Part shown: piece by piece, positions 8,442 through 39,751 of the stretch
Numbering within the stretch: the stretch's first letter is position 1
How the letters are laid out: the number at the start of each line of letters is the position of its first letter
IMG/VR virus record: IMGVR_UViG_3300033565_000024
DNA: 48,298 nucleotides
Source of the DNA: a virus
Reading direction: 5' to 3' (one strand)
The notes under the pieces: model-generated
Told to the model about the DNA's origin: nothing
The model's input: the letters and a program-made list of their open reading frames with translations, nothing else
The model's database searches: none
Made by a program: the position numbers and the translations under genes

Positions 8442-8473
8442 TAGTCTATCAGACAATTTCAACCGTATATTTG
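8442..8473 (+). promoter_or_regulatory. Palindrome TAGTCTATCAGACAA + 9 bp + -7 box TATATTTG (promoter of replication module)
   Basis: Palindrome 8442-8456, TAnnTTTG 8466-8473. Confidence 0.6.
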
Positions 8474-8507
8474 TAATCGGATTCAAACATGGTAGTTTGT
8501 CCGCCTA

Positions 8508-8586
8508 AAACCAAGACATGAAAAGTAATTCACACATTCATTTTCTCGCAGCTAAACGCACCCCTCCACATGAACTGTCTTGGTTT
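8508..8586 (+). repeat. 11-bp perfect inverted repeat (aaaccaagaca / tgtcttggttt) in the long leader of the replication gene
   Basis: 8508-8518 pairs with 8576-8586. 57-nt spacer. Lies between the promoter at 8442-8473 and the ATG at 8643. Confidence 0.5.
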
Positions 8587-8642
8587 CTTTGTGGTTGCAG
8601 CCAGTTGGTGTGTTTGGTTTGCGGGATTTTATTTTTAGCCAT

Positions 8643-9491
8643 ATGATAAAAGACGCGTTCTATTTCACTCACGACAGCAACGCCCGTAACGATGAGAAGA
8701 TTCTCGCCCTGCGGATGAGGCATAAGTCTGCCGGTTATGGCGTTTATTTTATGATTCTTGAAAGGTTAAGGGATTCGAAAGACTACTTGCACATAAAAGA
8801 TTATAATCTCATCGCATTCGATATTAGGGAATCTTCTGAATTGATAAAATCTGTAGTTGAAGATTTTGGATTGTTTGAATTTACAGAAAATGAAGAGGGT
8901 AAATTTTTCTATTCAAAAAGCTTTTGCTCGCGACTTGACGGGCGCGACACGACCCGAGAAAAGGCGAGAATAAGCGGGATGAAAGGTAACCTGATTAAGT
9001 ATAAAATAGTCTCAAAAAATGCCTTAATAAATATGAGTGACGATGATGTTATTAACCTGTATAACAAACAGTTTAATAAAGATGTCGCAACCCGATCGCA
9101 ACCCGATCGCAACCCGATCGCTAAGAAAGGAGAGGATAAGATAGGAGAAGAGAGGATAGGAGATAAAAAAAGCGATCCCCCGCACGATGTTTTTCCAGGA
9201 ATAAAATCAAATCAAAACCTGACTTATGAGGAAACATTATCACAGTTAGAAAATGAATATTCCTGGAAACATGAAATCCAGAAAAATTTTAAATCACTAA
9301 ACGATGATGAATCATTCAAAATTGCAATTAAGCAATTTATGACAGACACAAATATGGATGGAAAATATCCGCGATTGATTTCTGACACGAAGCAGCATTT
9401 TAGGAATTGTTTACAAAAGGGGAAATACCTGAATAGCCCAAAACCAAAGTATGATTCCGGCATTTACGAAGACTGTCCAAGAATAGATTAG
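8643..9491 (+). CDS. DUF4373-type replisome organizer / replication initiator
   Basis: MIKDAFYFTHDSNARNDEKILALRMRHKSAGYGVYFMILERL N-terminus. Sits directly upstream of DnaB. Start moved to ATG 8643, since the longer ORF from 8580 adds a non-protein-like leader. Confidence 0.6.
   Translation: MIKDAFYFTHDSNARNDEKILALRMRHKSAGYGVYFMILERLRDSKDYLHIKDYNLIAFDIRESSELIKSVVEDFGLFEFTENEEGKFFYSKSFCSRLDGRDTTREKARISGMKGNLIKYKIVSKNALINMSDDDVINLYNKQFNKDVATRSQPDRNPIAKKGEDKIGEERIGDKKSDPPHDVFPGIKSNQNLTYEETLSQLENEYSWKHEIQKNFKSLNDDESFKIAIKQFMTDTNMDGKYPRLISDTKQHFRNCLQKGKYLNSPKPKYDSGIYEDCPRID
9085..9121. repeat. Tandem 11-bp repeat tcgcaacccga x3.4 (candidate iterons, putative ori)
   Basis: Copies at 9085, 9096, 9107 plus partial 9118. 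One helical turn periodicity. Inside the organizer gene. Confidence 0.8.
9129..9166. repeat. Purine-rich repeat block (GAGAGGATA x2, ATAGGAGA x2)
   Basis: GAGAGGATA at 9130 and 9150. ATAGGAGA at 9141 and 9156. Immediately follows the 11-bp iterons. Confidence 0.7.
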
Positions 9492-9494
9492 GCC

Positions 9495-10853
9495 ATGATG
9501 AAACAACTTGAAGATAAAGCCCGTGAGAATCAGCAGTATCAAATGGAATTGCTGGCAATGATTCTGAACAATGATGAGGTTTATGTTAAAGCCATTGATT
9601 TCTTACGTCCAGGGCTTTTCACCGGAACAAACCTGATGATTTACGAGGCGTATGTGAAAATGGTAAAGCAATCACAACACCCCGATCCTGTCAGCCTATC
9701 AACAGTAGCGAACATACCGCTCGAAGAGGTTTTAAAAGTAGCCACTTACTACAGCGGAGCACCAATGGATATTAACGCTTTGCTCTATGAGCTTTTTGAT
9801 TATTTTGCCAAAGACAAGCTCACTAAGTTAGGCGCAAACATTAGCCAGCAGATCACGGCAGGAACCCGCTATGAGGATATACTCGAAATCGTTGGCCGCA
9901 CAATCCGAAGCCTTGAGCTTGGAAATAGCAGCTCAGTGATAACCATGCAGGAAGGTGTTAATTCACTGATGGAGCTGATAAATAACAATCGTGCAGTGAA
10001 AGAATTTACCGGAACCCCTACAGGATTTAAACTGATAGATCAACACATGGGCGGGCTTCACCCTGGAAACCTTGTAATTCTTGCCGGTGAAACATCACAC
10101 GGTAAAACAGCCTTTGCACTTTCTATGATGTTCAACAGTGCCGTGTATTTCAACCAACCATCTGCAATCATTTCGCACGAGATGACACATGATGAAATCA
10201 TGAGCCGATTAGCTGCATACGCAACAGAAATCAACGCGAAGCATATTTTAAACGGGAAGCTATCGGATGAAGAAATTTCTATTTTTTCAAACAAAATTAG
10301 TACACTCATTTTTGCGAATATATTTATTCAGGGATTTATAAAACGAGACCTCACAGAGACTGTTTCGGCTATAAGGCTACTTGTCATGCAGCACAGGATA
10401 AAGTACGTTGTGGTTGAAAATGCCGGAAACATAACCGTTAAGGGCGCTTTTAACGATGAGGTAAGGACAGCCGAAATATCAAAAACGCTGAAATCACTGG
10501 CGCTTGAATTAAAAATAACCATTATTCTGATAAGTCACCTTTCGCGCGATAAGGACAATGCGAAGAAACAGCCCGAACTGCACAGACTCAGGCATTCTGG
10601 TCAGTTGGAAGCGGATGCAGATATTGTGATGTTCACATACATGGCGAAACTACACGGGCACGAGTTTTTCCCGGATGACAACGAAATTCCAACACATGGA
10701 AGGGTAAAGACATACATTGCGAAAGGTAGAAGTTACGGCCTAGCTAAAACATATCCAGACTTCATCAAAGAGCTGGTACTGATTCGAGATCATGAAGATG
10801 ATGCAAAGGAAATATACAGCGCAAATAATATTTCACCAAATCTAACATTCTGA
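9495..10853 (+). CDS. dnaB: DnaB-family replicative DNA helicase
   Basis: GFKLIDQHMGGLHPGNLVILAGETSHGKTAFAL (Walker A), VVVENAG (Walker B-like), ILISHLSRD, RHSGQLEADADIV. Confidence 0.85.
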   Translation: MMKQLEDKARENQQYQMELLAMILNNDEVYVKAIDFLRPGLFTGTNLMIYEAYVKMVKQSQHPDPVSLSTVANIPLEEVLKVATYYSGAPMDINALLYELFDYFAKDKLTKLGANISQQITAGTRYEDILEIVGRTIRSLELGNSSSVITMQEGVNSLMELINNNRAVKEFTGTPTGFKLIDQHMGGLHPGNLVILAGETSHGKTAFALSMMFNSAVYFNQPSAIISHEMTHDEIMSRLAAYATEINAKHILNGKLSDEEISIFSNKISTLIFANIFIQGFIKRDLTETVSAIRLLVMQHRIKYVVVENAGNITVKGAFNDEVRTAEISKTLKSLALELKITIILISHLSRDKDNAKKQPELHRLRHSGQLEADADIVMFTYMAKLHGHEFFPDDNEIPTHGRVKTYIAKGRSYGLAKTYPDFIKELVLIRDHEDDAKEIYSANNISPNLTF

Positions 10854-10854
10854 C

Positions 10855-11031
10855 ATGAGCGATTTAATCTTGAAAATAATAGCCCTTGAGCTGGAATCAA
10901 TCAACTTGAAAAAAAAGTTGATCAAAAAATATTCGGGCAATGATGACGCCGTTTCGCAAATAATAGCAAAAGAAGCAAGATGTTCTATCCGACAATCTCA
11001 GGAATCAATTCAATTCTTTTCAAAGCTTTAA
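10855..11031 (+). CDS. Possible small ORF (58 aa), below the ORF-track cutoff
   Basis: ATG 2 bp after the dnaB stop. MSDLILKIIALELESINLKKKL... read by hand. No motif. Confidence 0.3.
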   Translation: MSDLILKIIALELESINLKKKLIKKYSGNDDAVSQIIAKEARCSIRQSQESIQFFSKL

Positions 11032-11080
11032 TTTCTTGTCAAATAAATTCAAAAGCATACAGTAATAAAACTCAATAAAC

Positions 11081-11389
11081 ATGCTACACATTCATTCAAT
11101 CAGAATCACAGACGGCAACAAATGTTACAAGCCTAAAATGATGAAAAACACATTTGTTAAAAACATTGAATGCGTTGAAGCTTTCGAACATGAAGAGCTT
11201 TCCAAATTCATTCAAAAGAAATACCCAAACGGCATACCGTTGTCAAGGGATTTGAAGTTAGTTCCGCTGGTATCAAATGCAACTTATATCAGCATCCCGG
11301 ATCGTGAGTTCTTGCACTACCTGGTTGCAAAGTTGAATTACAAAACTATCCCGCAACAAATTATTAATCTTTTCAGGAAAGTAGGATGA
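11081..11389 (+). CDS. Hypothetical protein
   Basis: 102-aa ORF, ATGA overlap with the next gene. Confidence 0.5.
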   Translation: MLHIHSIRITDGNKCYKPKMMKNTFVKNIECVEAFEHEELSKFIQKKYPNGIPLSRDLKLVPLVSNATYISIPDREFLHYLVAKLNYKTIPQQIINLFRKVG

Positions 11390-11868
11390 AAAACATTATA
11401 GCAATAGACCCCGGAAATATCGAAAGCGCCTATGTTGTGCTCAATGATTCAAAGATTATTGAAAAAGGCAAGGTCCTAAACGGTGACCTGCTGTTTATGA
11501 TAAAAAACAGCCGATTGAGGTCAAAGGATCCATACGATGAACTTCATATCGAAATGGTAGCTTCTTACGGGATGCCGGTCGGGAAAGAAGTATTTGACAC
11601 CTGTGTGTTCATTGGCAGACTTATGCAAGCCTGGGATGATCAGGTTCAGCCTTCGGGATGCCATGCTACTCAGGTATTCAGGAAAGAGATAAAAATGCAC
11701 CACTGCGGGAGCATGAGGGCTAAGGATGGGAATATTATTCAGGCGCTTAAAGATAAGTACGGGGACAAGGGCACAAAGAAGAATCCCGGGTATTTCTTCG
11801 GCATGTCTGCTGATGTATGGCAAGCTTTTGCCCTGGCTTCTTATGTGATGGAAAGGGAGGCATCATGA
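11386..11868 (+). CDS. RuvC-like Holliday junction resolvase
   Basis: IIAIDPGNIESAYVVL (catalytic Asp motif), HIEMVASYG, SADVWQAFALASY (C-terminal acidic motif). Confidence 0.6.
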   Translation: MKNIIAIDPGNIESAYVVLNDSKIIEKGKVLNGDLLFMIKNSRLRSKDPYDELHIEMVASYGMPVGKEVFDTCVFIGRLMQAWDDQVQPSGCHATQVFRKEIKMHHCGSMRAKDGNIIQALKDKYGDKGTKKNPGYFFGMSADVWQAFALASYVMEREAS

Positions 11869-12389
11869 AATTAGCAGATAAAATACAACTTGCATTGATT
11901 CCCTGGTGCCGTGGACATGCTTACGATATCATAATTCCAAATTACTACTTCGGTATGTACGAAATGGATTTATTCAGGCTATTGGATAGTGGATATTCGG
12001 TGGAGTATGAAATCAAAGTGAGCCGATCAGATTTTAAAGCTGATTTCAATAAATCATTTAAAAGCTTTTCAGGAAAACATGATTCTGTAAAGCATAATGA
12101 TTTACAGAATGGAAAGCGGGTTTGCAATAGATTCTTTTTCGTGGTACCGAATGGATTAATTAAAGTTGATGAAGTTCCTGATTATTGTGGATTGATATAC
12201 TATCATCCATCCGGTAGATTGGAAATGGTTAAAAATGCTAAGATGCTTCACAAGAATAAAATCAGCGATCTCAGAAACATGTCTCACAAATTATCAATCA
12301 GATGCCAGATTTTACAATCAAAACTGCGATATGCAAAGGACGATATCCGAGAGATGAGGGAATTGATAAAAAATTTAAATACAAAATAG
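11865..12389 (+). CDS. PD-(D/E)XK nuclease (MmcB-like)
   Basis: YEMDLFRLLDSGYSVEYEIKVSRSDF fits D...E-x-K. Start set at ATG 11865 (ATGA overlap) rather than 11817. Confidence 0.45.
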   Translation: MKLADKIQLALIPWCRGHAYDIIIPNYYFGMYEMDLFRLLDSGYSVEYEIKVSRSDFKADFNKSFKSFSGKHDSVKHNDLQNGKRVCNRFFFVVPNGLIKVDEVPDYCGLIYYHPSGRLEMVKNAKMLHKNKISDLRNMSHKLSIRCQILQSKLRYAKDDIREMRELIKNLNTK

Positions 12390-12418
12390 TCTTTCGGACA
12401 AATAACAACGTAATTTTG
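12387..12418 (+). promoter_or_regulatory. Palindrome TAGTCTTTCGGACAA + 9 bp + TAATTTTG (promoter of packaging genes)
   Basis: 12387-12401 and 12411-12418. The ATG at 12424 is only 5 nt after the -7 box. Confidence 0.6.
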
Positions 12419-12423
12419 TACCC

Positions 12424-12837
12424 ATGCCAGCAAACTTCTATGACCGGTTAGAATTAATTAAACGACAAAAACAAATCGTTGATTGGATTCTAATTGGCTG
12501 GTCAACACGGATGATAACTGATGAGTGTATCAAACTTTGGGGAGTCGGAGAGAGAACCTGCTACAATTATATCAAGAAGGCGCTTGCTATGCTTGAAGAT
12601 AAAGAAGAGCCTGGCCTGAAGATCAAACAGAGGGTCCATACAGAGCGAAGGTTGAAGTTGCTCAGAGATCTCAAAGATAAAGATACTCCATCAGGTGCCA
12701 GAACAGCGCTCAGGATCCTTGACAGCATCGCAAAGATTGACGGTTCCTTGATTGAAAAGGTCGATGTGACATCTGCAGGTGAGCAGATCACCGGAACAGT
12801 GGTAGTACTTCCCGAAAATGGCAGAGAGAGTCAATGA
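12424..12837 (+). CDS. terS: Putative terminase small subunit
   Basis: 137-aa protein immediately upstream of, and overlapping, TerL. HTH-like ITDECIKLWGVGERTCYNYIKKAL. Confidence 0.5.
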   Translation: MPANFYDRLELIKRQKQIVDWILIGWSTRMITDECIKLWGVGERTCYNYIKKALAMLEDKEEPGLKIKQRVHTERRLKLLRDLKDKDTPSGARTALRILDSIAKIDGSLIEKVDVTSAGEQITGTVVVLPENGRESQ

Positions 12838-14353
12838 GATAAAGCCACAGCCTGGCTTTCAAACTGAATTCCTTTCTTCACGTGCTGATATAGTCATTGG
12901 GGGTGGAGCTGCAGGTGCCGGGAAAACATTTGCAGAGTTACTGGAACCACTCAGGAACTACCGGGTTAAAAACTTCGGTGCCATATTCTTCAGAAGAACA
13001 GTCCCTCAGATCAAATCAATCGGGGGACTTCTCGACGAATCAAAAAACATTTATTACAAATTCGGCGCAAAGCTTAATCAATCCAACCTGAGTTGGGAGT
13101 TCCCATCTGGTGCATTGGTGAAATTCCGGAGCCTTGAGCACGAAAAGAATATTTATGATCACCAGGGTGCCCAATACCCGCTGATTATTTTTGACGAGCT
13201 AACTCACTTCACTAAAAAGCAGTTTCTGTATCTGTTATCCAGGAACCGGTCTACCTGCGGAGTTCCGCCTTATGTACGGGCTACTTGTAACCCCGATCCG
13301 GATAGCTGGGTTGCGGAATTGATAAAGTGGTGGATCGACCAGGAGAGTGGATTTCCAATACCGGAACGTGCCGGTAAGATCAGGTATTTTGTCGCTGAAA
13401 AAGATAATTACATCTGGGGCGATACCAGAGAGGAAGTAATTGAAAAAGCCCCATACCTTTTTGATAGTCCGGCGTTTGATGATATTGACAAAAGCCGCCT
13501 GGTAAAATCACTCACATTCATACCCGGATCAATCTATGGCAACAAAATGCTGCTTGAAAAGGATCCTGGATACCTCGCCAACTTGCTTTCTCAGGACGAA
13601 AGTGAGCGGGCCAGACTCTTGGAGGGAAACTGGAAAGTAAGCATGGATGGAAGTGCCTTGTTTGAATTCTCTGCTACATTCAACATTTTCTCAAACTTTG
13701 TTGAAAAGAGTGATACCAGGGTTATAACATGTGATGCCGCAAGGTTCGGGGCGAACCTTGCAATAATCATGGTTTGGAAAGGATGGGAAGTTGTTGCTAT
13801 GCATATATTCACTACTTCAGCACTGGATAAGCTCAGAGATACCATTGAATTTGAACGCGAACGATGGAAAGTACCTAGCTCGGGTGTTCTGGTCGATCAG
13901 GATGGACTTGGAGGTGGATTAGTTGACTTTGGTGGATATGTAGGCTTCTCAGGAGGGGAAACGGCCATGGATGATCCGAAAACAGGGATCAAGGAAAACT
14001 TCTACAACAAAAAGACTCAGTTGTTTTACCGGCTGGCAGAAAAGGTGAATGCCTGCAGGATACTGATCAAGCTGGAAAGAGATAACTGCTTTGTTGATGG
14101 AGTGAACACAACCAAAGTGAAGGTGAAGGGCACAACCTATGAGATTTCAGACCTGATCAGAAAACACCTAAGGTGCATAAAGAAAAAGATCACTGACGGT
14201 GATGGCAAGCTACGAATTAACAGCAAAGAAGAACAGAAAGCTATCCTTGGCGCTGATGAAAGCCCTGATTTTGCGGACACTTTGATGATGAGAATGCAAT
14301 TTGAATACAATCCTGTAACTACCAACAAGGATCTGTCAGGATTATTTTTTTAA
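12818..14353 (+). CDS. terL: Terminase large subunit
   Basis: Walker A GGGAAGAGKT, Walker B LIIFDELTHF, C-terminal nuclease half. 511 aa. Confidence 0.9.
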   Translation: MAERVNEIKPQPGFQTEFLSSRADIVIGGGAAGAGKTFAELLEPLRNYRVKNFGAIFFRRTVPQIKSIGGLLDESKNIYYKFGAKLNQSNLSWEFPSGALVKFRSLEHEKNIYDHQGAQYPLIIFDELTHFTKKQFLYLLSRNRSTCGVPPYVRATCNPDPDSWVAELIKWWIDQESGFPIPERAGKIRYFVAEKDNYIWGDTREEVIEKAPYLFDSPAFDDIDKSRLVKSLTFIPGSIYGNKMLLEKDPGYLANLLSQDESERARLLEGNWKVSMDGSALFEFSATFNIFSNFVEKSDTRVITCDAARFGANLAIIMVWKGWEVVAMHIFTTSALDKLRDTIEFERERWKVPSSGVLVDQDGLGGGLVDFGGYVGFSGGETAMDDPKTGIKENFYNKKTQLFYRLAEKVNACRILIKLERDNCFVDGVNTTKVKVKGTTYEISDLIRKHLRCIKKKITDGDGKLRINSKEEQKAILGADESPDFADTLMMRMQFEYNPVTTNKDLSGLFF

Positions 14354-14360
14354 CACTAAT

Positions 14361-14392
14361 TTGTCTATCAGACAATTTTGAATGTAAATTTG
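14361..14392 (+). promoter_or_regulatory. Perfect palindrome TTGTCTATCAGACAA + 9 bp + TAAATTTG (promoter before portal)
   Basis: 14361-14375 and 14385-14392. TTTG at 14360-14363 sits 21 bp upstream of the -7 box. Confidence 0.65.
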
Positions 14393-14408
14393 TCCAAACA
14401 TTTGAGCG

Positions 14409-15812: not shown

Positions 15813-15858
15813 CTTCCAACACCTTCTGTATTAACTTTGCAGTACCAACCACACCACA

Positions 15859-16110
15859 ATGAGAAAGTACAGAGAATTCACCGCCGATTATCCTACTGAA
15901 TGTGATCCAATTTCGGGCAATTCAGAATTTGAATCAGTTCTCACTACAATCGACCTTTACTCTATCGTTTCTTTCAATCCCGGATCCTTCGGCAATCAAA
16001 CCACTATCAGAATGTCAGACGGATGTATATTTGACATCAGAATTGCATACAAAGACTTCAAAAAAATAATGAAGGCCGAAGTACCCGAATTATTCCACAG
16101 CGCGAATTAA
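15859..16110 (+). CDS. Hypothetical protein
   Basis: 83-aa ORF between portal and MuF. Stop overlaps the next ATG. Confidence 0.5.
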   Translation: MRKYREFTADYPTECDPISGNSEFESVLTTIDLYSIVSFNPGSFGNQTTIRMSDGCIFDIRIAYKDFKKIMKAEVPELFHSAN

Positions 16111-19480: not shown

Positions 19481-19495
19481 TTGTCTATTGGACAA
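19481..19495. promoter_or_regulatory. Palindrome copy TTGTCTATTGGACAA 10 bp upstream of the HNH start
   Basis: Same 15-mer family, in the divergent intergenic region 19472-19662. Confidence 0.45.
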
Positions 19496-19608
19496 ATTTA
19501 CAAACAATATTCACAAATAGTGTATAGGAATGTAAATATATTTCTTTTACCATCAATCAATTAACGTAAATATGTGGCGCACACATAAATAGAGTTATGT
19601 TTTTCGTA

Positions 19609-19640
19609 TTGTCTATCAGACAAATTACACGCTAATTTTG
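19609..19640 (+). promoter_or_regulatory. Perfect palindrome TTGTCTATCAGACAA + 9 bp + TAATTTTG (promoter of head genes)
   Basis: 19609-19623 and 19633-19640. ATG at 19663. Confidence 0.65.
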
Positions 19641-32587: not shown

Positions 32588-32610
32588 TCAAATATTTTTT
32601 AACACTCAAA

Positions 32611-32642
32611 TAGTCTTTTAGACAATTTTGTAATTAACTTTA
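32611..32642 (+). promoter_or_regulatory. Palindrome TAGTCTTTTAGACAA + 9 bp + TAACTTTA (7/8 -7 box)
   Basis: 32611-32625 and 32635-32642. The upstream ttttttaacact is shared with the 14346 copy. Confidence 0.5.
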
Positions 32643-32663
32643 CATCAAATTAAAACAAGCAAC

Positions 32664-32771
32664 ATGATCGACTTGAATTTCACACTTATCATTGCCGGGA
32701 TGGTAGTTGTAATACTGCTGGCAAATTCAGGAAATAACATTGGCTTGATCAAAAAAATGTTACATAAATGA
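32664..32771 (+). CDS. Possible 35-aa single-TM peptide
   Basis: Hand-translated MIDLNFTLIIAGMVVVILLANSGNNIGLIKKMLHK. ATGA overlap with the next gene. Confidence 0.35.
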   Translation: MIDLNFTLIIAGMVVVILLANSGNNIGLIKKMLHK

Positions 32772-33124
32772 GAAAGCTGTTTGTAATTATATTATTTGTT
32801 CCCCTGTTAAGCTTCACTCAAACATTCTGGGGAAAATATGAATATGTTGCAACGCTTCATGCTCACGATAATGACAATGGAGGTAGTGAGTTATACTGGA
32901 CCATTACAGCCGGAAATGCAGATAAAACTTTCATCATTACCCCCTGCTCCGGCCAGCTCAAAGCAGATACAAATATTTACAGCTCATTCCAGCGATCAAA
33001 AACTATTTACCTGACTTGCCGGGCAACAGATCAGGGCGGTTTGTATTCTGTCCAGAAAGTAAAGGTCATTTTAACAAAAACCAATAACAGGCGAAATCCT
33101 GCCCAATGCTATGCTGTACAATGA
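32768..33124 (+). CDS. Secreted cadherin-like / Ig-like domain protein
   Basis: Signal peptide MRKLFVIILFVPLLSFTQ. HDNDNGGSELYWTITAGNADKTF...CRATDQGGLYSVQKVKVIL resembles a cadherin repeat. Confidence 0.5.
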   Translation: MRKLFVIILFVPLLSFTQTFWGKYEYVATLHAHDNDNGGSELYWTITAGNADKTFIITPCSGQLKADTNIYSSFQRSKTIYLTCRATDQGGLYSVQKVKVILTKTNNRRNPAQCYAVQ

Positions 33125-33605
33125 CACGAGTAATGTTAAAGACGTGATAGAAGCTCTTCCCAAAATTGAGCGATTTGTACGGTACTATGCCGGTACAAAC
33201 TATTCATCCGACATCATGTCTGAAATCAAGGTCAAAGCATTAGAGTTGGGTTTTGAACAAAGAGGGGTAAAGATTGAAAGTTGGCTCATTGAAATTGCAA
33301 AAAACGTCTGCAAATGTCAATTTAAGAAGCAAAAAAGAAACCCGGTAGCAGAATATGTACCGGATGATATCGGTATCGAATTTCAGCCTTGCCTGCTTGA
33401 AGAAAAGGAAATGATTAGAATTATTAAATCACTACCTACAACTCAAAATAAAGTTCTTTTATTAACCATTGCCGGATACAAGTGCCGGGAAATAGCGAAG
33501 AAACTAAACCACAAACCAGAATCTGTTAAATCAAAATTGTGGATCGCAAGAAATACCCTTAAAAACAAACTGAAAGCCCAGGATGCTCAATTACTTGTCT
33601 GCTAA
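33111..33605 (+). CDS. Sigma-70 family (ECF-like) RNA polymerase sigma factor
   Basis: Region-2-like ESWLIEIAKNVCKCQFKK. Region 4 HTH LLLTIAGYKCREIAKKLNHKPESVKSKLWIARNTLKNKL. Confidence 0.6.
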   Translation: MLYNDTSNVKDVIEALPKIERFVRYYAGTNYSSDIMSEIKVKALELGFEQRGVKIESWLIEIAKNVCKCQFKKQKRNPVAEYVPDDIGIEFQPCLLEEKEMIRIIKSLPTTQNKVLLLTIAGYKCREIAKKLNHKPESVKSKLWIARNTLKNKLKAQDAQLLVC

Positions 33606-33633
33606 TAACCTTGTATGCTCCCTGGGCTTTTTT
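33573..33633 (+). terminator. Long-range hairpin aaagcccagg/cctgggcttt + T6 spanning the sigma gene stop
   Basis: 10-bp stem 33573-33582 / 33621-33630, 38-nt loop, tttttt. Confidence 0.4.
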
Positions 33634-33645
33634 AACTTGTAAGCT

Positions 33646-33900
33646 ATGAAAACTGTCAAAATCCTGCTTAAAAGATTCAAGGCCGAAACCCCGGCCATCC
33701 TAAAAAAGACAAGAAATGCTTGTCTGGCCGTATCTGCCTTTTGCGCAAGCTTAACGGGTACGCTGATTGCTTCAGGGAAGTATGAAAAGCTGTCAACGAT
33801 CTTAATGATAATTGGAGGTGTGACTACCGCACTGGCAGCTGGTATTGCAGTAGGGCTTCAATTATCGACTTCGGATACCGGTGTACAACAATTAAACTAA
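33646..33900 (+). CDS. Small two-TM membrane protein (holin-like)
   Basis: 84 aa with two hydrophobic helices. Heads the lysis block. Confidence 0.45.
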   Translation: MKTVKILLKRFKAETPAILKKTRNACLAVSAFCASLTGTLIASGKYEKLSTILMIIGGVTTALAAGIAVGLQLSTSDTGVQQLN

Positions 33901-33906
33901 GTGTGT

Positions 33907-34362
33907 ATGCCGCAGCGTGTTTTAATTATAGCCAACTGGTTTACAACTCACATTTGGAATGTTGTATGCGGGATTTTCTTTGCATTCATAAGTTACTTCG
34001 CTGAAATGAAAGGTGCTTTTCATGTGATGTTTGCCGCTTTCATGGTTGATCTGATTCTTGGCATAATGGCCTCTAAAATTGTGAGGAATGAAAAGTTTTC
34101 AATGCATAAGTTCTTTGTTGCCTGGTATAGGATGCTGATATCATATGCGCTGGTAATGCTGCTTTATGCAATGAATAAGGAAATGCACCAGGATACCGTA
34201 AGCATTGAAAATATTGTCAGTTGGACAATAACCGGATTCTTGATTTACAGTGCGGCAGAAAACGGATATGAATTGACCGGTGGCCGGATACTTCTGAACA
34301 TAAAATCTATGATCAGGAATAAGGTTCAGGAAAATACGGGAATTGACCTCGATAAAGATTAG
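33907..34362 (+). CDS. Holin-family membrane protein
   Basis: Multiple TM helices. FMVDLILGIMASKIVRNEKFSMHKF resembles the phage holin 4 family. ATG 33907 preferred over GTG 33901. Confidence 0.55.
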   Translation: MPQRVLIIANWFTTHIWNVVCGIFFAFISYFAEMKGAFHVMFAAFMVDLILGIMASKIVRNEKFSMHKFFVAWYRMLISYALVMLLYAMNKEMHQDTVSIENIVSWTITGFLIYSAAENGYELTGGRILLNIKSMIRNKVQENTGIDLDKD

Positions 34363-34364
34363 CC

Positions 34365-34871
34365 ATGACAGCAAAAAACTATTATCCAAATCTGCCTGAA
34401 TTACCGTACAAAAGAACGGTTGTTTCGATGGATGCAATCGTGAAATATGCGAATTCAAACCGGGCTTACAGCACTGAGGTTAAAAGAATGGCATACATGA
34501 TGTTTCGCAATGAAAGCGCAAACGGCACAAAGGGAGTGAATAATAATTATGCCGGAATTCAGGCTGATTGCGGGGTGTGGTCTGGACTGAAGGGTGCTAT
34601 AGGTACATGCGTTCGGGTTGATTCTGGAAATGCACTAAGAAGGTTCATTTGCTTTAAAGACGAAACCGGACATCAGGATACTTTTGACTTCCTGTGTTTT
34701 AAAATCAGGCAGCGCGGCATGTTTATCGGGGCCCCGGATGTTAATAACATAAATGGATTAGTAGCTATCTACCTTCAAAAGTGGGTAGGTAGAATAAATT
34801 ATATTCCAACCACACAAGAACTGACCAACTGGACGAGTTTTTATAATTCTGCTAAAAAATACATTATATGA
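34365..34871 (+). CDS. Putative endolysin (lytic-transglycosylase-like motifs)
   Basis: Position after the holins. FRNES...NNNYAGIQAD is reminiscent of the E-S...G-L-M-Q motifs of the SLT fold. Weak. Confidence 0.35.
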   Translation: MTAKNYYPNLPELPYKRTVVSMDAIVKYANSNRAYSTEVKRMAYMMFRNESANGTKGVNNNYAGIQADCGVWSGLKGAIGTCVRVDSGNALRRFICFKDETGHQDTFDFLCFKIRQRGMFIGAPDVNNINGLVAIYLQKWVGRINYIPTTQELTNWTSFYNSAKKYII

Positions 34872-35602
34872 ATGTTATGAATATCTTGAACAGACTTCCA
34901 AACAAAAAAGAAACGCTTGTGCTTACGGTCATTGTAATATTGGCCGCTTTACTACTATTTGTTTCGCAATGCTCTCGAACAAAACAGGAAGTCGCAACTA
35001 ATAATGATCAAATCGCCCAAAATAGGATTGAAGCACTTCAAGACAACATTGCGCTTCTTGAAAAAAGGGAAATTGCCTATGTCGCTGCACAGGATAGTAT
35101 GAGTAGAATCAACGCAGCTCTAAACAGGCTGATCGCTCAAAAGGATGCAAAGTACGCTCATATCGCCTCTATTGCAGCCGAAGAAAAAAACAGGGTCAGG
35201 GAATTACCAGATGACAGTGCAGCAGGCTTGTTCCTGGACCGGGCTGATTGTTCAGAATTTCCGGTACTGGCTTATGATTCAAATTACATTATTCCTATTG
35301 AGCCAATCAGGTTTTATAATTTAATGGCTGTTGATTTTGATGAGCTAAAAGCGATACATCATAATTTACAGGACCAATACTCAATCCGGGTGCTTCAAGT
35401 AAGAAACCTTAACGGAATTATTGATAAGCAGAGCCAGCGCATTGATAATTTGAGCGAAGCGATTAACGAAAAAGACGGCATAATAATTCAAAAGGACAAG
35501 CAGATAGTTAGCGGAAAGAAGTTGTTAAAGCAGCAAAAAATAAAAACATTCACAGCTGGGGCCGCTGGCATATTGCTTTGCGCTGCTGGTATTTTGTTGT
35601 AA
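34868..35602 (+). CDS. Membrane-anchored coiled-coil protein (spanin-like)
   Basis: N-terminal TM LVLTVIVILAALLLFV, coiled-coil body, C-terminal TM AGAAGILLCAAGILL. Confidence 0.35.
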   Translation: MNVMNILNRLPNKKETLVLTVIVILAALLLFVSQCSRTKQEVATNNDQIAQNRIEALQDNIALLEKREIAYVAAQDSMSRINAALNRLIAQKDAKYAHIASIAAEEKNRVRELPDDSAAGLFLDRADCSEFPVLAYDSNYIIPIEPIRFYNLMAVDFDELKAIHHNLQDQYSIRVLQVRNLNGIIDKQSQRIDNLSEAINEKDGIIIQKDKQIVSGKKLLKQQKIKTFTAGAAGILLCAAGILL

Positions 35603-35615
35603 TTTTTAGCCCAAT

Positions 35616-35647
35616 AGACTAATCGGATAATAAATGAGTTAATTTTG
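35616..35647 (+). promoter_or_regulatory. Degenerate palindrome (right half TCGGATAA) + 9 bp + TAATTTTG
   Basis: -7 box 35640-35647. Only the right half-site is conserved. Confidence 0.4.
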
Positions 35648-35669
35648 TATCAAAATAACACTTAAAGCT

Positions 35670-35954
35670 ATGTCAGACAGCATTCAAATGATATCAGGGG
35701 CTTATGGAAATAGGCCTATTACATCAGGAGCAGGTGTAAAGACTTTCACGAAACCAGCATACGGTTGCAGGTTCACCGAAAATACAGTTATTACAGCATT
35801 CAAAGATGATGCAGGTAAAACAGTCGACATTGGTTGGGCTGGTGTATCGATAACTCCTGACGATGGACTGATTCTATTTGGGACACAGATAAAATCAATT
35901 ACCGTTACTCAGGGCGGCAAAGGATGTTACTATTTGTGCGATTCAGACCTTTAA
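35670..35954 (+). CDS. Hypothetical protein
   Basis: 94-aa ORF preceding the esterase fiber gene. Confidence 0.5.
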   Translation: MSDSIQMISGAYGNRPITSGAGVKTFTKPAYGCRFTENTVITAFKDDAGKTVDIGWAGVSITPDDGLILFGTQIKSITVTQGGKGCYYLCDSDL

Positions 35955-35964
35955 TATTACCGTC

Positions 35965-37473
35965 ATGTTAGATACATTAATTGGGGTATCTCCTTTCGCG
36001 CGCCTTGGGACAAATTTGAACTATCCGGTTTCTGCTATTGTGGAAGATAATCAACCGGATAAAGTGGTTGTTACATTTACAAATGCAGATACATCACTTT
36101 TGGCTTCGGATTTTACTATTGCAGGATTTACGGTTAGTTCCCTTGCAAGGGATGTAACTAATAAGATACTTACGTTAAGCCTATCAACTCAATTTGAATA
36201 TGGTAGGGTTGCTACACTTGTGTTGAAGGGTAAATCCTATTCAATAACTAACAATGTCGAATATCTTACAGCCCTTAAAAACGCTGTTGTTGCCTCAAAT
36301 ATAGTATCATATTTCCCGATGAATGAAGTTTCGGGAACAACAATGGTTGATTCAGTTAACGCTCGTAATGGTGAATTTGTTGATGTAACGCTTAATCAAG
36401 CAGGTTTCATAAAGGGAAAATCAATACTGTTTCCTGGATTAGATTCAGCAGGTGATTTATATGCAGCCATAGCAGCCATGAATAAAAACGAGGGTGCTAT
36501 AATTATTAACGTGAAGCACACACAAACACCTAATGTTTCAGTTTCGTATAGGGCAACTGATATAAACGACTGGCCTTCATTAAGCTATAACCCAACAGAT
36601 AAGAAAATGTACTTCAATTCTGTTTATGGTGGTGTTGGAGCGTTGGCAGGATTTCACTATTATGGGAATACCGAATGGATGCAAATATGCATTACATGGT
36701 CTGTTAGTGCTAATACTGCAAAGGTTTTTGTCAATGGATTACCGGCTGATCCTATTCCAAGCGTTTCACTGGCTGGTAGATCATGGAGTGGAACATTAAG
36801 AAATGATCTTTGTGCAATAGGTAACGAAAGAAAATCGGGTTCACAAAACAAAGCGTCAAGAGGGTATTATTCACACGTTGCAGTTATTAATAAATATGTA
36901 ACTGAAAGCGATTTGCGCAAAATATATCCTTACAATCAGGTAATATTTGCAGGCGACAGCAGGACAGAGGGCGAAATTTACCCCACAAAGGCAGTTGCCG
37001 ATTCCCTTGTAGCATTCAGAAACAAGGCAGTTGCAGGAATATCAACTGCAACATCTATAACCGCAGCGGCAGTAAATGTCGATGCTTTTTATCGTGCTGA
37101 TGTGAAAAACATATGTGTAATGTGGTGCGGTGTAAATGATGGCACAAGTGCAGCACAGACTTATGCAGATTTAAGAACATATTGTTTAGCCCGCAAGGCG
37201 GTTGGTTTTAAAACTATCATCTGTACTGAAATAGATGCTCAGGATGCTTCAAGAAATTCAGTAAACTGGAATTCAACATACATGCCTGCCCTTAATGTAC
37301 TTTTAAAAGCAGATCATTCTTTTGCTGATGGATTTGCAGATTTAAGCGCAAATGCAAATTTGATGGATGCGAATAATACCACCTACTTTAATGTAGATAA
37401 AGTACACTTAACCGATGCCGGATACAGTGAAGTTGCGGCAGTTGTAAAGCCTGTAATTGCTTCACTGCTTTAG
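35965..37473 (+). CDS. Tail fiber/spike with LamG-like lectin domain and C-terminal SGNH/GDSL esterase
   Basis: FPMNEVSGTTMVDSVNARNG (LamG-type). Block I VIFAGDSRTEG, block III MWCGVNDG, block V DKVHLTDAGY. Confidence 0.7.
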   Translation: MLDTLIGVSPFARLGTNLNYPVSAIVEDNQPDKVVVTFTNADTSLLASDFTIAGFTVSSLARDVTNKILTLSLSTQFEYGRVATLVLKGKSYSITNNVEYLTALKNAVVASNIVSYFPMNEVSGTTMVDSVNARNGEFVDVTLNQAGFIKGKSILFPGLDSAGDLYAAIAAMNKNEGAIIINVKHTQTPNVSVSYRATDINDWPSLSYNPTDKKMYFNSVYGGVGALAGFHYYGNTEWMQICITWSVSANTAKVFVNGLPADPIPSVSLAGRSWSGTLRNDLCAIGNERKSGSQNKASRGYYSHVAVINKYVTESDLRKIYPYNQVIFAGDSRTEGEIYPTKAVADSLVAFRNKAVAGISTATSITAAAVNVDAFYRADVKNICVMWCGVNDGTSAAQTYADLRTYCLARKAVGFKTIICTEIDAQDASRNSVNWNSTYMPALNVLLKADHSFADGFADLSANANLMDANNTTYFNVDKVHLTDAGYSEVAAVVKPVIASLL

Positions 37474-37491
37474 TTCCAATTTGGAACTTTT
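37473..37491 (+). terminator. Short palindromic hairpin gttccaa/ttggaac + tttt
   Basis: Directly overlaps the stop of the esterase gene. Confidence 0.35.
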
Positions 37492-37512
37492 CATGCATTT
37501 AAAAACTGAAAC

Positions 37513-37878
37513 ATGACAGAATTATTTGAACAAATAGCCTTTATCTTTTTGATTCTGATTTCATTTTTGGTGAAAGAAGGAGCTGAAAGGGCATTCGACC
37601 GTAAAGACAAAACACCACGAAGCAAGTGGAGTAGGTTATATCACATCATGAGTCTATTTGTCCGAATCGGATTATTTCTGTTGCTCGGTTTATTGACTAA
37701 GCATATACCAGGAATTATGAAATTTATTTACCTGGCGACTTTTGCATTTTTGGCATGGCCAGGGTACAATATTACTATCAATCTATTCAGAGGTGATAAA
37801 TGGTACTATGTCGGAACTGATGGAATTGACAGAGTGATCAGGAAAATTTTATTCTTTGTGAACTTCGATAAAAAATAA
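37513..37878 (+). CDS. Integral membrane protein, unknown function
   Basis: 121 aa, 3-4 hydrophobic helices. Confidence 0.5.
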   Translation: MTELFEQIAFIFLILISFLVKEGAERAFDRKDKTPRSKWSRLYHIMSLFVRIGLFLLLGLLTKHIPGIMKFIYLATFAFLAWPGYNITINLFRGDKWYYVGTDGIDRVIRKILFFVNFDKK

Positions 37879-37888
37879 TTATTTCAAA

Positions 37889-37918
37889 TTGTCCTTTAGA
37901 CAATATATTGTATATTTG
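37889..37918 (+). promoter_or_regulatory. Palindrome TTGTCCTTTAGACAA + 7 bp + TATATTTG (promoter of recombinase leader)
   Basis: 37889-37903 and 37911-37918. Confidence 0.55.
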
Positions 37919-37963
37919 TGACGTTCAACTTTCGAAATAAAATCTTCCTATTTAATCAGAGCT

Positions 37964-38031
37964 TAGCCCTGAGTGTGCTGTAACCCGTAAGGAACAGACG
38001 GTCTCGAAAGCCGGAACAACACTCAGGGCTA
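37964..38031 (+). ncRNA. Structured 5' leader element: 13-bp closing stem around two GNRA-capped hairpins
   Basis: tagccctgagtgt (37964-37976) pairs perfectly with acactcagggcta (38019-38031). Inside: ctgt..cc-GTAA-gg..acag and cgg...c-GAAA-g.ccg. Flanked by direct GCTTAG repeats. Confidence 0.45.
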
Positions 38032-38054
38032 TTGCTTAGGGGGGAATTACAAAC

Positions 38055-39047
38055 ATGAATACCGCTTTAAGATTGGTGCCATCCGGAATACAGGTTTCCG
38101 GGAAACGAGATTATGTAAACAAGCTTAACAGCTTAGAACCTAAATATGGGGTTCAGTTCTCAGACTTCATAGAAATTACGATAAACAGGAAAGCAAGGCG
38201 GATGGGTGAAAACTACAAAGCCAACTACATAACCCTGATTAATCACTTGACGAAATTTGCAGAAATTAACGATGCTGTCATTTATACAAATAGCATCAAT
38301 GAGGAGTTCCTTGATGATTTCATTATTTACCTGCAGGATCAAAACTTGAAACAGGCATATATAAAGAACCTTGTCTCCCTGGTTAAATCCATGGCTAAAA
38401 AAGCCGGCATATCTGGATACGCAGTTGACATTTCTTATGATGATGTGATGGTGGATGATGAGGAATCGTTCTCTGTTTATTTGTCGCTCAATGAAATAGC
38501 AAGAATATACTTTTTTAAGGGTCTTACCAAAAAACAAGAAAGGATCCGTGATTTATTTATTGTTGGATGCCTTACAGCTTTGAGGTTTTCAGACTACTCT
38601 ACGCTTACAAAGGATAATTTCTCTAAAGATTTTATTACTAAGGTTACTAAGAAAACCGGCAAAAAGGTGATTATTCCAATTCATGATTATGTGCGTGAAA
38701 TTTACGAAAAGTATGACGGCCAGATAAGCCCGGGTATAACAAACCAGCATTTTAACAGGTATGTTAAAAAGATTTGCAAGCTGGTCGGGTTAAATGATAG
38801 TGTGACTTTCAATTATACCCGTGGCGGGAACCTGATCACTGAAACAAAACAAAAATGGGAAATGATTTCAAGCCATACAGCACGAAGAAGCGCTGCAACA
38901 AACATGTACCTGACAGGACGGATGAAAACATACGAAATAATGTCGATAACCGGACATACTACAGAGAAAAGCTTTTTCAGGTACATAAAAATTACAGGCG
39001 AAGACATATCAAAGCATATTGCCGGGGATACATTTTTTAAAAAGTAA
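38055..39047 (+). CDS. Tyrosine recombinase (short, no arm-binding N-terminal domain)
   Basis: LTALRFSD (Arg I), SSHTARRSAATNM (H-x-x-R), ITGHTTEKSFFRYIK (His...Tyr). Confidence 0.85.
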   Translation: MNTALRLVPSGIQVSGKRDYVNKLNSLEPKYGVQFSDFIEITINRKARRMGENYKANYITLINHLTKFAEINDAVIYTNSINEEFLDDFIIYLQDQNLKQAYIKNLVSLVKSMAKKAGISGYAVDISYDDVMVDDEESFSVYLSLNEIARIYFFKGLTKKQERIRDLFIVGCLTALRFSDYSTLTKDNFSKDFITKVTKKTGKKVIIPIHDYVREIYEKYDGQISPGITNQHFNRYVKKICKLVGLNDSVTFNYTRGGNLITETKQKWEMISSHTARRSAATNMYLTGRMKTYEIMSITGHTTEKSFFRYIKITGEDISKHIAGDTFFKK

Positions 39048-39048
39048 G

Positions 39049-39080
39049 GTATCTGTCAGACAATTTTATATTTAACTTTG
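39049..39080 (+). promoter_or_regulatory. Imperfect palindrome GTATCTGTCAGACAA + 9 bp + TAACTTTG
   Basis: 39049-39063 and 39073-39080. Followed about 30 nt later by a terminator. Confidence 0.45.
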
Positions 39081-39107
39081 TTAGGTGGTTAGTTTTTGGT
39101 TAGGTTG

Positions 39108-39138
39108 AAACCGGGGCAATAAAATGTTCCGGTTTTTT
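39108..39138 (+). terminator. Intrinsic terminator aaaccgg-(14 nt)-ccggttt + tttt
   Basis: Stem 39108-39114 / 39129-39135, then a T run to 39138. Confidence 0.55.
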
Positions 39139-39139
39139 A

Positions 39140-39180
39140 TTGTCTATTAGACTAATTTGGCAAATTCATACTTACATTTG
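39140..39180 (+). promoter_or_regulatory. Palindrome TTGTCTATTAGACTA + 18 bp + TACATTTG (promoter of secreted-protein gene)
   Basis: 39140-39154 and 39173-39180. Paralogous to the 39712 copy. Confidence 0.5.
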
Positions 39181-39224
39181 TATTCTCTTTTCAATTCACT
39201 ATTTATTAATCAATTCAAAACACA

Positions 39225-39647
39225 ATGAAAAAAGAATTATTTGCTTTGTGCTCGATCATGCTTATGATGATCGCATTCGCCCCACCGGGGCAATCGAATA
39301 CCCAGCCTGTTCAGCAGGATTATTCGTATTGCATTCCCGATTTTACCTCTGTTTCTGCTCAGGCAGCAATTGAGGTGCAGGTTTATGATTACTCATACAA
39401 CCAGGAAACCGGGACAATTGAATTTGCCGAAATCGCAAGTTGTGATGTATCACCTGGTAACGGCTTACTATGCGGGTCAGCGCGAAATGCAGTATTATTT
39501 TATGATCTTTCTTTTGATAACAATGCACTGCCAGTGAAGCATTTTCGAACGTGCCACAATAGTATGGGTGTTCAAAATATGTTAACTTTAAATATGCCGG
39601 ATATCTATTATGAGCCCCGTGACGGGCTGACGCCGGCAGCAGCGTAA
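39225..39647 (+). CDS. Secreted protein (signal peptide), moron-like
   Basis: MKKELFALCSIMLMMIAFAPPGQS. Own promoter and own terminator. Confidence 0.6.
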   Translation: MKKELFALCSIMLMMIAFAPPGQSNTQPVQQDYSYCIPDFTSVSAQAAIEVQVYDYSYNQETGTIEFAEIASCDVSPGNGLLCGSARNAVLFYDLSFDNNALPVKHFRTCHNSMGVQNMLTLNMPDIYYEPRDGLTPAAA

Positions 39648-39681
39648 TTATTTTCGATAGAAAAAAATAGCCAATCAGCTA

Positions 39682-39710
39682 AAAGCCTTGCAGACGTGTA
39701 AGGCTTTTTT
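39682..39710 (+). terminator. Intrinsic terminator aaagcctt-(10 nt)-aaggcttt + ttt
   Basis: 8-bp stem followed by a T run. Confidence 0.7.
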
Positions 39711-39711
39711 A

Positions 39712-39751
39712 TTGTCCAATGAACAATTTAATCAAATTGTATCTATCTTTG
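39712..39751 (+). promoter_or_regulatory. Palindrome-like TTGTCCAATGAACAA + 17 bp + TATCTTTG (promoter of tRNA)
   Basis: 39712-39726 and 39744-39751. The tRNA starts 11 nt downstream. Confidence 0.5.

Follow-up and report, generated by a model that had tools for sequence, protein, structure and literature searches.

The viral record IMGVR_UViG_3300033565_000024 of the IMG/VR database is a stretch of DNA of 48,298 nucleotides, which we refer to as a whole as the window. It contains a palindrome of 15 to 19 bp that recurs in front of many transcription units, at set distances upstream of a -7 promoter box of the Bacteroidota type (TAnnTTTG), and this palindrome and the phage regulators that may bind it are the subject of this analysis. 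The ends of the contig are repeated (1–130 is the same as 48169–48298), indicating a circle, or a terminally redundant assembly, of approximately 48,168 bp. The window represents a temperate tailed phage, for which no close match was found among deposited phage genomes. A Bacteroidota-type host is well supported because the named relatives of its TerL come from Flavobacteriales, Chitinophagaceae, Sphingobacterium, and Chryseobacterium, because matches to sigma-70-type promoters in the window occur at chance level only, and because TAnnTTTG boxes are enriched in non-coding DNA, which makes up 7% of the sequence but holds 12 of the 21 plus-strand boxes.

A CI-like gene of the helix-turn-helix (HTH) family HTH_3 (42442–42885, minus strand) is divergent from a small Cro-like gene (43037–43273, plus strand), which opens a long rightward block. 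This block carries genes for a LuxR-type protein, an HTH_17 protein, a RecT-like protein, an SNF2 helicase, and Lin1244_N and DnaB-like proteins. TerS/TerL, the portal gene, and the head and tail genes come next along the map. They are followed by a post-tail operon that encodes a holin and an ECF-type sigma factor with regions 2 and 4 (33111–33605, located just after a small cadherin-like protein at 32768–33124), and the map closes with two tyrosine recombinases and a tRNA-Met gene.

The conserved core of the palindrome is TTGTC-N5-GACAA. Its extended form is aATTGTCyNNNrGACAATt. According to a weight matrix built on 17 sites of the window and related phages, A-rich and T-rich flanks stretch the symmetry to approximately 19 bp; G3, T4, C5, A12, and C13 are invariant and G11 is nearly so. 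The centres of the half-sites are 10 bp apart and therefore face the same side of the helix. Judged by its sequence, the combination of half-sites on one face and conserved arms is the signature of a dimeric DNA-binding protein. Exact copies of TWGTCTNTNAGACAA are present at 8442, 14361, 19609, and 32611 (0 expected), and TTGTCTATCAGACAA with up to three mismatches occurs at 12 loci (approximately 2 expected). Allowing at most one mismatch in the core, 11 sites were found (6197, 8442, 12387, 14361, 19481, 19609, 32611, 34214, 37889, 39140, and 39712), compared with a genome-wide expectation of 2.0 under a Markov model. Ten of the 11 touch the small non-coding fraction of the genome, for which the Markov expectation, calculated for non-coding-like sequence, is 0.17.

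Eight sites form a composite of the palindrome with a plus-strand TAnnTTT[G/A] box, against an expectation of 0.055, and all eight are on the gene strand with none on the other strand. The gap between palindrome and box is 9 bp in five composites (8442, 12387, 14361, 19609, and 32611), 7 bp in one (37889), and 18 bp and 17 bp in the remaining two (39140 and 39712, respectively). The initial annotation of the window had claimed that the palindrome is joined to a -7 box in front of many units and had reported these same gaps, and both claims are borne out. Its count of about ten units resolves into eight firm ones plus two to three weak ones, and the box following the copy at 32611, which it had given as TAnnTTTG, is in fact TAACTTTA. 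Neither exact cores nor composites were detected in a control set of 109 other phage loci totalling 1.42 Mb, 80 of which came from a tail-fibre query that matched a common repeat and are unrelated to the window. A similar frequency of the motif in coding or unrelated DNA, which the initial annotation had put forward as a reason to abandon the idea, was thus looked for and not seen. The element is real, highly non-random, and kept in a narrow clade of phages.

In most copies the palindrome occupies the -33 position, with its centre approximately 17 bp upstream of the -7 box, while in the second spacing class (a gap of 17 to 18 bp) the site lies about one helical turn further upstream. The left half-site of copies with a gap of 6 to 9 bp places TTG 18 to 21 bp upstream of the box, or TAG in the copies at 8442, 12387, and 32611, as the initial annotation had noted; in the copies with a gap of 17 to 18 bp this TTG is far outside the -33 range. 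In the window and in its relatives, a putative regulator box overlaps or replaces the -35-equivalent element at a set distance from the downstream element at several promoters. Of the 12 TAnnTTTG boxes that non-coding DNA carries on the plus strand, three (at 15832, 41273, and 42968) are without any palindrome, full or partial. Many -7 boxes, for example at 14385 and 19633 in the window and at 11567 and 17209 in the related contig L002, run on as TTTGTC or TTTGTA and so end in a sequence like the half-site TTGTC, which may reflect no more than the local promoter consensus.

Nearly all gene blocks other than the early one have the palindrome ahead of their promoter box. At 8442..8473 (plus strand, as for all of the following promoters), TAGTCTATCAGACAA is separated by 9 bp from the -7 box TATATTTG and precedes the replication block of the Lin1244_N gene (8580–9491) and the DnaB-like gene (9495–10853). 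TerS/TerL are preceded by TAGTCTTTCGGACAA, a 9-bp gap, and TAATTTTG (12387..12418); the TAG that opens this copy (12387–12389) is the stop codon of the upstream gene at 11817–12389, so coding constraint may explain the variant. The portal gene follows a perfect palindrome, TTGTCTATCAGACAA, with a 9-bp gap and the box TAAATTTG (14361..14392), and the head genes, from 19663 onward, follow another perfect palindrome with a 9-bp gap and TAATTTTG (19609..19640). The post-tail operon, with the cadherin-like, ECF-type sigma factor, and holin genes, is preceded by TAGTCTTTTAGACAA, a 9-bp gap, and TAACTTTA (32611..32642), and the second tyrosine recombinase (38055–39047) by TTGTCCTTTAGACAA, a 7-bp gap, and TATATTTG (37889..37918).

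Two further composites directly follow terminators. At 39140..39180, TTGTCTATTAGACTA begins 4 nt after a terminator and is followed by an 18-bp gap and TACATTTG, ahead of a gene at 39225–39647. At 39712..39834, TTGTCCAATGAACAA directly follows the terminator at 39681–39708 and leads, via a 17-bp gap and TATCTTTG, to tRNA-Met(CAT) at 39762–39834. Two other copies reported by the initial annotation need adjustment. A weak copy is indeed present near 35616, but its better register is TAGCCCAATAGACTA at 35607–35621, with an 18-bp gap to TAATTTTG (35607..35647), ahead of 35670–35954 and a GDSL-like gene; the register at 35616 falls below the reporting cut-off of the weight matrix. The 9-bp gap reported at 39049 is correct, but only the promoter-proximal half of the palindrome (GTATCTGTCAGACAA) is present there, upstream of the box TAACTTTG at 39073 (39049..39136). 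A strong terminator (39107–39136) lies approximately 30 nt after this box, and the inferred transcript of approximately 50 nt, which would end at this terminator and contain no reading frame, may represent a small RNA or else a short leader that is terminated.

Three of the core sites do not belong to a plus-strand composite. The copy at 19481, which had been listed as weak, is a perfect core (TTGTCTATTGGACAA, 19481..19500, assigned to the minus strand). The palindrome there extends over the 3' end of a -7 box on the minus strand (TAAATTTG, running from 19500 to 19493) and over the expected start of a leftward HNH/ASCH cluster, and has no box on the plus strand. To judge from this layout, its position is a repressing one, the classic position of an operator. 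A copy does exist at 6197..6211 (TAGTCCCATAGACAA), as the initial annotation had said, but this is an orphan in a 42-bp intergenic gap without a -7 box on either strand. The last is a perfect core, TTGTCAGTTGGACAA, within the holin gene (34214..34228), with no -7 box nearby. An exact core is expected approximately 0.06 times per genome from base composition, and it is unlikely that this one arose by chance.

The immunity region between the CI-like and Cro-like genes (42886..43036) carries the early promoter box, TATATTTG at 42968, which has no palindrome; the initial annotation had likewise excluded this promoter. Instead, three CAG-N4-CTG repeats were recognised by eye at 42886–42967 (ATCAGTTTTCTGAT, TGCAGAAAATGCAG, and TTCAGTTTTCTGCT; a repeat of this type is also listed as TTCAGTTTTCTG). 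They are unrelated to the palindrome and are probably the CI/Cro operators.

The initial annotation had suggested a search for the motif in related phages, and we found it at the corresponding TerS, portal, and head promoters of phages whose TerL is at least 80% identical, as well as at a tRNA promoter in the contig of a more distant relative. The most complete of these relatives, phage B (43,128 bp as a contig in IMG/VR, 43,140 bp as one in ENA), was fully recovered as the overlapping loci L025, L002, L051, and L132, and L025 and L002 are 99.96% identical in their overlap. Its TerL is 80% identical to that of the window, and its genome contains exactly three exact cores, at the TerS promoter (9-bp gap), the portal promoter (7-bp gap), and the head gene promoter (18-bp gap), and none elsewhere. 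A sequence resembling the 19481 copy is present in phage B at 17060; it retains just the half shared with the -7 box, and we do not count it as conserved. L030 (TerL 90% identical) has two perfect copies, each with a 9-bp gap, before the portal gene and before a methyltransferase-TerS block. The latter box is further upstream, ahead of the methyltransferase gene that precedes TerS. L032/L033 (TerL 81%) have copies before TerS (9-bp gap) and portal (6-bp gap). In L135, whose LuxR homologue and integrase are 47% and 52% identical to those of the window, ATGTCTTGAGGACAG, a 17-bp gap, and TACATTTG lie immediately after a terminator and before a tRNA gene, which is the layout of the window at 39712. 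Orthologous promoters differ in their flanks, in the five central base pairs, and even in the gap (9, 7, or 6 bp for portal; 9 or 18 bp for head genes), while the half-sites are constant.

The motif was not found in relatives with TerL identities of 57% to 69% (L003–L008, L031, and L138), and L031 and L138 have no promoter of any kind at the TerL-portal junction. Box and promoter thus appear, from these alignments, to be gained and lost as one unit, and their joint absence speaks for the box as a part of promoter function and against an operator added to a free-standing promoter. Two palindromes that might have replaced the box were considered and rejected: ACTAT-N5-ATAGT, at the TerL-portal junction of L003, L004, and L007, does not recur, and TTGTA-N5-TACAA in L008 occurs at chance-level frequency. 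A palindrome-family scan of L004, L007, L008, L026, and L031 found none. Repeated occurrence of the composite in IMG/VR was restricted to the phage lineage of the window; beyond the phage B contig, every hit of the scan was a lone copy on a contig with no protein in common with the window, and these are probably chance matches. In species-representative genomes, a TerL scan found nothing but a distant Chryseobacterium prophage; a LuxR-family profile run against JGI metagenomes recovered only phage B again, and a tail-protein scan only unrelated phages.

A comparison of all window proteins against the complete phage B genome revealed that the only regulators with homologues are the LuxR-type protein (51% identity) and the HTH_17 protein (44%). 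Phage B has no homologue of the CI-like, Cro-like, and ECF-type sigma proteins, of the three small leftward genes, or of any part of the 31.3–42.9 kb region. The CI-like, Cro-like, and sigma proteins, which the initial annotation had included among the candidate binders, are accordingly set aside, and for the first two the repeats in their own region also differ from the palindrome.

The LuxR-type protein (180 amino acids, 43252–43794, plus strand) is our main candidate. Its start overlaps the end of the Cro-like gene, and in all relatives seen the gene is located directly after a Cro-like gene and overlaps it. The protein matches the Pfam GerE family at exactly the family threshold (23.5 bits), and a profile of its own family matches the DNA-binding domains of RcsB and VraR (E = 7e-6). 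The modelled C-terminal domain (the last 60 residues) superposes on VraR, LiaR, and GerE with a root-mean-square deviation of approximately 1 Å, and the C-terminus is on this basis predicted to be a four-helix HTH of the GerE/RcsB/VraR type. Pfam detects neither an autoinducer-binding nor a phosphoreceiver domain, and no PDB structure matches the N-terminal half with confidence. Four cysteines (C66, C89, C95, and C104) are invariant across the family, including a 30%-identical homologue from a Microcystis phage. They are situated in a conserved DYCHCGNRGHCPDEGFxGLC stretch, which AlphaFold models poorly and which is probably a metal or redox site. The family comprises 161 cluster representatives at E < 1e-10, mostly of 175 to 200 amino acids. 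The T-Q pair of the predicted recognition helix is kept in all four homologues from motif-linked contigs (the window, P0006, P0005, and P0010), where L029 is counted as motif-linked because it is the probable partner of L030 (both are window-like and from a common sample, with no overlap that joins them). A-E stands in their place in the phage represented by L026/L027, for which 20 kb of the 69-kb ENA contig of L026 (ERZ28593310 scaffold_144) were covered and yielded no box.

GerE-type HTH folds commonly bind inverted repeats as dimers. Excisionase-type proteins typically read direct repeats, and for this reason we rank the LuxR-type protein above HTH_17 as the most likely binder. A candidate LuxR-type dimer would also fit the geometry of the site, with half-sites 10 bp apart.

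The Microcystis phage that carries the distant homologue, Mea-Yong924-1 (MZ447863, L049), has its LuxR-type gene in the corresponding position, after a small gene that faces a divergent gene. An asymmetric 16-bp motif, ACACGCTGTCCTTTTT, occurs in intergenic DNA on the gene strand of this phage at 13082, 17591, 19626, 23763, and 28683 (five matches, 0.56 expected), in four of five cases approximately 30 nt before a start codon. The palindrome architecture of the window does not extend to this phage, where the motif is different and asymmetric.

From the motif, its enrichment, spacing, and conservation, and the co-occurrence of the regulator genes, we infer the binder, the sign of regulation, the timing, and the start sites as follows. 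We favour, with moderate confidence, the interpretation that the palindrome is the site of a dimeric early phage regulator, probably the LuxR-type protein, which would activate sigma-A-type middle or late promoters and would probably repress the leftward promoter at 19481. This agrees with the phage-specific, regulator-dependent promoter class and the LuxR-type candidate put forward by the initial annotation, with which the in silico tests, including the sharing of the LuxR-type gene with phage B, are consistent. On induction or infection, the early rightward operon would be transcribed and the regulator would accumulate. It would then bind the boxes and recruit or stabilise RNA polymerase where the -7 box is good and a proper -33 contact is missing, switching on the units for replication, packaging, head and tail, and post-tail/lysis functions as well as the accessory units, the tRNA among them, while the leftward accessory promoter at 19481 would be shut off by the same protein covering its start site and -7 box. 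The simplest account of these positions is a regulator with a dual effect, activating at or just upstream of -33 and repressing over a start site.

Several observations favour activation. The only conserved candidate regulators are in the early lytic operon, which makes for a sensible cascade in which later units are turned on. Gap lengths are tightly grouped around 9 bp, a second group has 17 to 18 bp, and the head promoter has a gap of 9 bp in the window and 18 bp in phage B; gap classes that differ by about one helical turn are as expected for a face-dependent contact with polymerase. TAG takes the place of the -33 TTG in three copies, and relatives without the box are also without the promoters.

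Other observations weigh against this interpretation. The -7 boxes are close to consensus, such that the promoters might fire unaided, which would suit a repressor better. The gap of the orthologous portal promoter drifts from 9 to 7 to 6 bp, a looser geometry than is typical of strict activators, and the copy at 19481, on a -7 box and expected start, is a point for repression. As for the identity of the binder, HTH_17 is co-conserved as well as the LuxR-type protein, and its gene is absent from L026, which is alone among the relatives with a LuxR-type gene in having shown no box (20 kb covered). No repeated palindrome is obvious in Flavobacterium phage laban6-1, whose gene order is the same and includes a LuxR-type gene that matches the window protein weakly and in part (E = 0.3). 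A host factor as the binder, discussed below, would likewise count against a phage regulator.

The strongest alternative is that the palindrome is purely an operator, through which a phage or host repressor silences all non-early promoters until it is removed. We consider this rather unlikely. It would account for the near-consensus -7 boxes, for the tolerance of gaps from 6 to 9 bp in orthologous promoters, for the overlap of most sites with the -33 position and of one with a -7 box and start site, and for the many copies across the genome. However, steric blocking requires neither a peak at 9 bp nor a second peak about one turn away, and the sites with a 17- to 18-bp gap barely overlap -33. 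A repressor of late genes also makes little sense in the early lytic operon, where alone the conserved regulators are found, and relatives that lack the box have no bare promoters at matching places. Nor does the palindrome look like the site of an immunity repressor, since the motif-bearing phage B has no counterpart of the lysogeny-side genes (the CI-like gene and the leftward operon) and the putative immunity repeats are of the other type, CAG-N4-CTG.

If the palindrome is an activator site, the activator may be a different protein. The HTH_17 protein (excisionase/MerR-like, 115 amino acids, 43791–44138, plus strand) is our second candidate, and could act as an upstream activator or as an antiterminator loaded at the promoter. 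It is common to phage B, L029 (65% identity), L135, and L136, its HTH core TLYRYIG is invariant, and it is missing from the LuxR-bearing L026/L027, for which no box was seen in 20 kb. It has also been kept in both the window and phage B, whose integrases are unrelated to each other, which leaves room for a role beyond excision. A precedent from Bacteroides is available, in which small excisionase-type proteins activate tra and mob promoters (PMC3809561). On the other hand, its Pfam score is below the family threshold (23.5 versus 27 bits), and most boxes have no leader terminator before their genes, such that antitermination is not obviously needed. Excisionase-type HTH proteins, moreover, usually bind direct repeats as monomers or filaments, in contrast to inverted repeats spaced by 10 bp. 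On balance, we regard HTH_17 as an unlikely substitute for the LuxR-type protein.

Less probable still is a host transcription factor, either SOS-type or a global regulator, that binds the palindrome and wires the phage promoters to host physiology. The motif is common to phages with differing immunity modules, and a dyad-N5-dyad is the format of the sites of Bacteroidetes LexA-like repressors, of which variants exist (PMC8565304). The half-sites differ, however, from both Bacteroidetes SOS motifs, GGA-N5-TCC and CTAA-N5-TTAG (PMC8565304), and we therefore rejected the LexA-like SOS box as an identity for the palindrome. A host factor is also difficult to reconcile with a composite that is repeated only in this phage lineage and a box that tracks the clade with TerL identities of at least 80% and is absent from the nearest sister phages.

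The palindrome could in principle function in RNA, as a hairpin or terminator ending the upstream units, or as a recombination or packaging site. It is often located directly after a stop codon or terminator, and a 6-bp stem is possible. Yet the predicted hairpins are weak (-2.3 to -5 kcal/mol, with stems of 4 to 6 bp, compared with -15.8 kcal/mol for the terminator at 39107–39136), and most tested copies are close to shuffled sequence. The palindromes do not have the G+C-rich stem and U tract of intrinsic terminators, and none was reported in a terminator scan. The arms are conserved as sequence across the 17 sites and never covary; variants of the type TAGTC...GACAA break a base pair without compensation. 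Weak hairpins and conserved arms that do not covary point to a protein site on DNA as opposed to an RNA structure, and the fixed spacing to a strand-specific promoter box would be left unexplained, making this alternative very improbable. The same low probability applies to the idea that the phage ECF-type sigma factor recognises the left or right half of the palindrome as a -35-type element. This sigma factor does have regions 2 and 4 and is encoded behind one of the boxes, yet the reading is close to refuted, as complete phage B has no sigma homologue (elsewhere homologues are found on short unrelated contigs and on no long contig), the downstream element is the housekeeping TAnnTTTG box, and a sigma factor would not be expected to read a symmetric site.

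We found no paper on this motif or on any late-promoter class in temperate Bacteroidota phages, and to our knowledge neither a late or middle promoter class nor a master regulator is known for such phages. Very little is known about the timing of their expression. A regulator-dependent promoter class per se would not astonish a specialist, but with one box of 15 to 19 bp, eight to eleven sites, and two candidate proteins it offers a first directly testable handle on the timing of lytic genes in temperate Bacteroidota phages and on what their widespread "LuxR" genes do. The cassette of box and promoter could serve as an inducible promoter part in Bacteroidota genetics, and the motif could aid the calling of transcription units in related metagenomic phages.

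The widespread "LuxR" genes of flavophages have been interpreted as quorum-sensing sensors (PMC8776804), and our results raise an alternative reading of them. Speculatively, the 180-amino-acid "LuxR" proteins encoded after the cro-like gene in many temperate Bacteroidota phages could be master regulators of the lytic programme and not quorum-sensing receptors. Each would combine a four-cysteine N-terminus that senses metal or redox state with a sigma-region-4-like HTH that acts at -33, replacing or re-positioning sigma region 4, and would turn approximately ten promoters on and one antisense accessory promoter off. The outcome would be a phage-private promoter class in a phylum where the control of phage transcription is essentially unknown. 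We put this broader proposal forward tentatively, and hold it with clearly less confidence than the reading of the palindrome itself.

Some features of the early region are separate from the palindrome. The SNF2-type helicase of phage B (L025 9328–11558) has an annotated intein-splicing domain between its helicase motifs, and its homologue in the window (6769–8424) does not. Rfam reports a 106-nt tRNA (45 bits) at 495–600 on the plus strand, where ARAGORN does not call one; by eye, the element resembles a tRNA gene with an insert of approximately 35 nt. Similar tRNA-like sequences were recognised by eye in the early operons of relatives (L026 14492–14634 and L029 9737–9878, which are the clearest, and L025 6081–6343), and the motif GGCAGCCGGGAAAGACCGGCACCC (in its window form) is common to the window, L029, and L025 within the corresponding intergenic stretch.

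In function, the window element comes nearest to the MotA-dependent middle promoters of T4, lambda CII, the late activators Mu C/Mor and P2 Ogr, and LuxR/GerE-type regulators with position-dependent effects. By descent it is none of the T4 MotA, lambda CII, Mu C/Mor, P2 Ogr, L5, or phiC31 systems; its promoters are of the Bacteroidota type, its site is palindromic, and its candidate regulator combines a LuxR-type HTH with a new cysteine domain. The middle promoters of T4 (MotA/AsiA) are similar in that a phage box near -30 replaces the -35-type element at a near-fixed distance from a host-type downstream element, and in that a protein produced early by the phage serves many promoters. MotA itself binds as a monomer to an asymmetric box of 9 bp and needs the co-factor AsiA ("sigma appropriation"). 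By contrast, the site in the window is a palindrome of 15 to 19 bp at Bacteroidota -7/-33 promoters, and no homologue of MotA or AsiA was seen there. Lambda CII and P22 C1, Mu C/Mor, and P2 Ogr are likewise phage activators that bind a repeat overlapping or adjoining the -35 element of several phage promoters. The CII site consists of direct repeats, and the sites of Mu C/Mor and P2 Ogr have dyad symmetry, serve a small late regulon, and are centred at about -43 to -55. These families differ from our candidate in having no LuxR-type HTH, none of them comes from Bacteroidota, and the Mu and P2 sites are further upstream.

The stoperators of mycobacteriophage L5 and the inverted repeats conserved in phiC31, which are the parallel for the pure-operator reading, are also single short sites repeated across a temperate phage genome, mostly in short intergenic gaps. 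They belong to the immunity repressor, and those of L5 are asymmetric and block elongation. In the window, however, the immunity gene is not co-conserved with the motif, and the site is symmetric and lies at set distances upstream of a promoter box. Within the Bacteroidota, a comparison is offered by CTnDOT of Bacteroides, a mobile element in which the small HTH proteins Xis2c and Xis2d bind just upstream of the sigma-A-type tra and mob promoters and raise transcription, which is relevant to HTH_17 (PMC3809561). That case involves two promoters and not a genome-wide regulon, the proteins also act in excision, and the text examined describes no palindrome at a fixed spacing.

Finally, the candidate binder shares its predicted GerE/LuxR-type HTH with LuxR/TraR/GerE-type regulators, which act at the lux box, the tra box, and GerE sites. 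Members of this family bind as dimers to inverted repeats of 12 to 20 bp, often over the -35 element, and activate or repress depending on position. Our candidate would differ from the classic members in having a new four-cysteine N-terminal domain instead of an autoinducer or receiver domain, and in that the main spacing class of the window places the site closer to the start than the classic -42.5 position.

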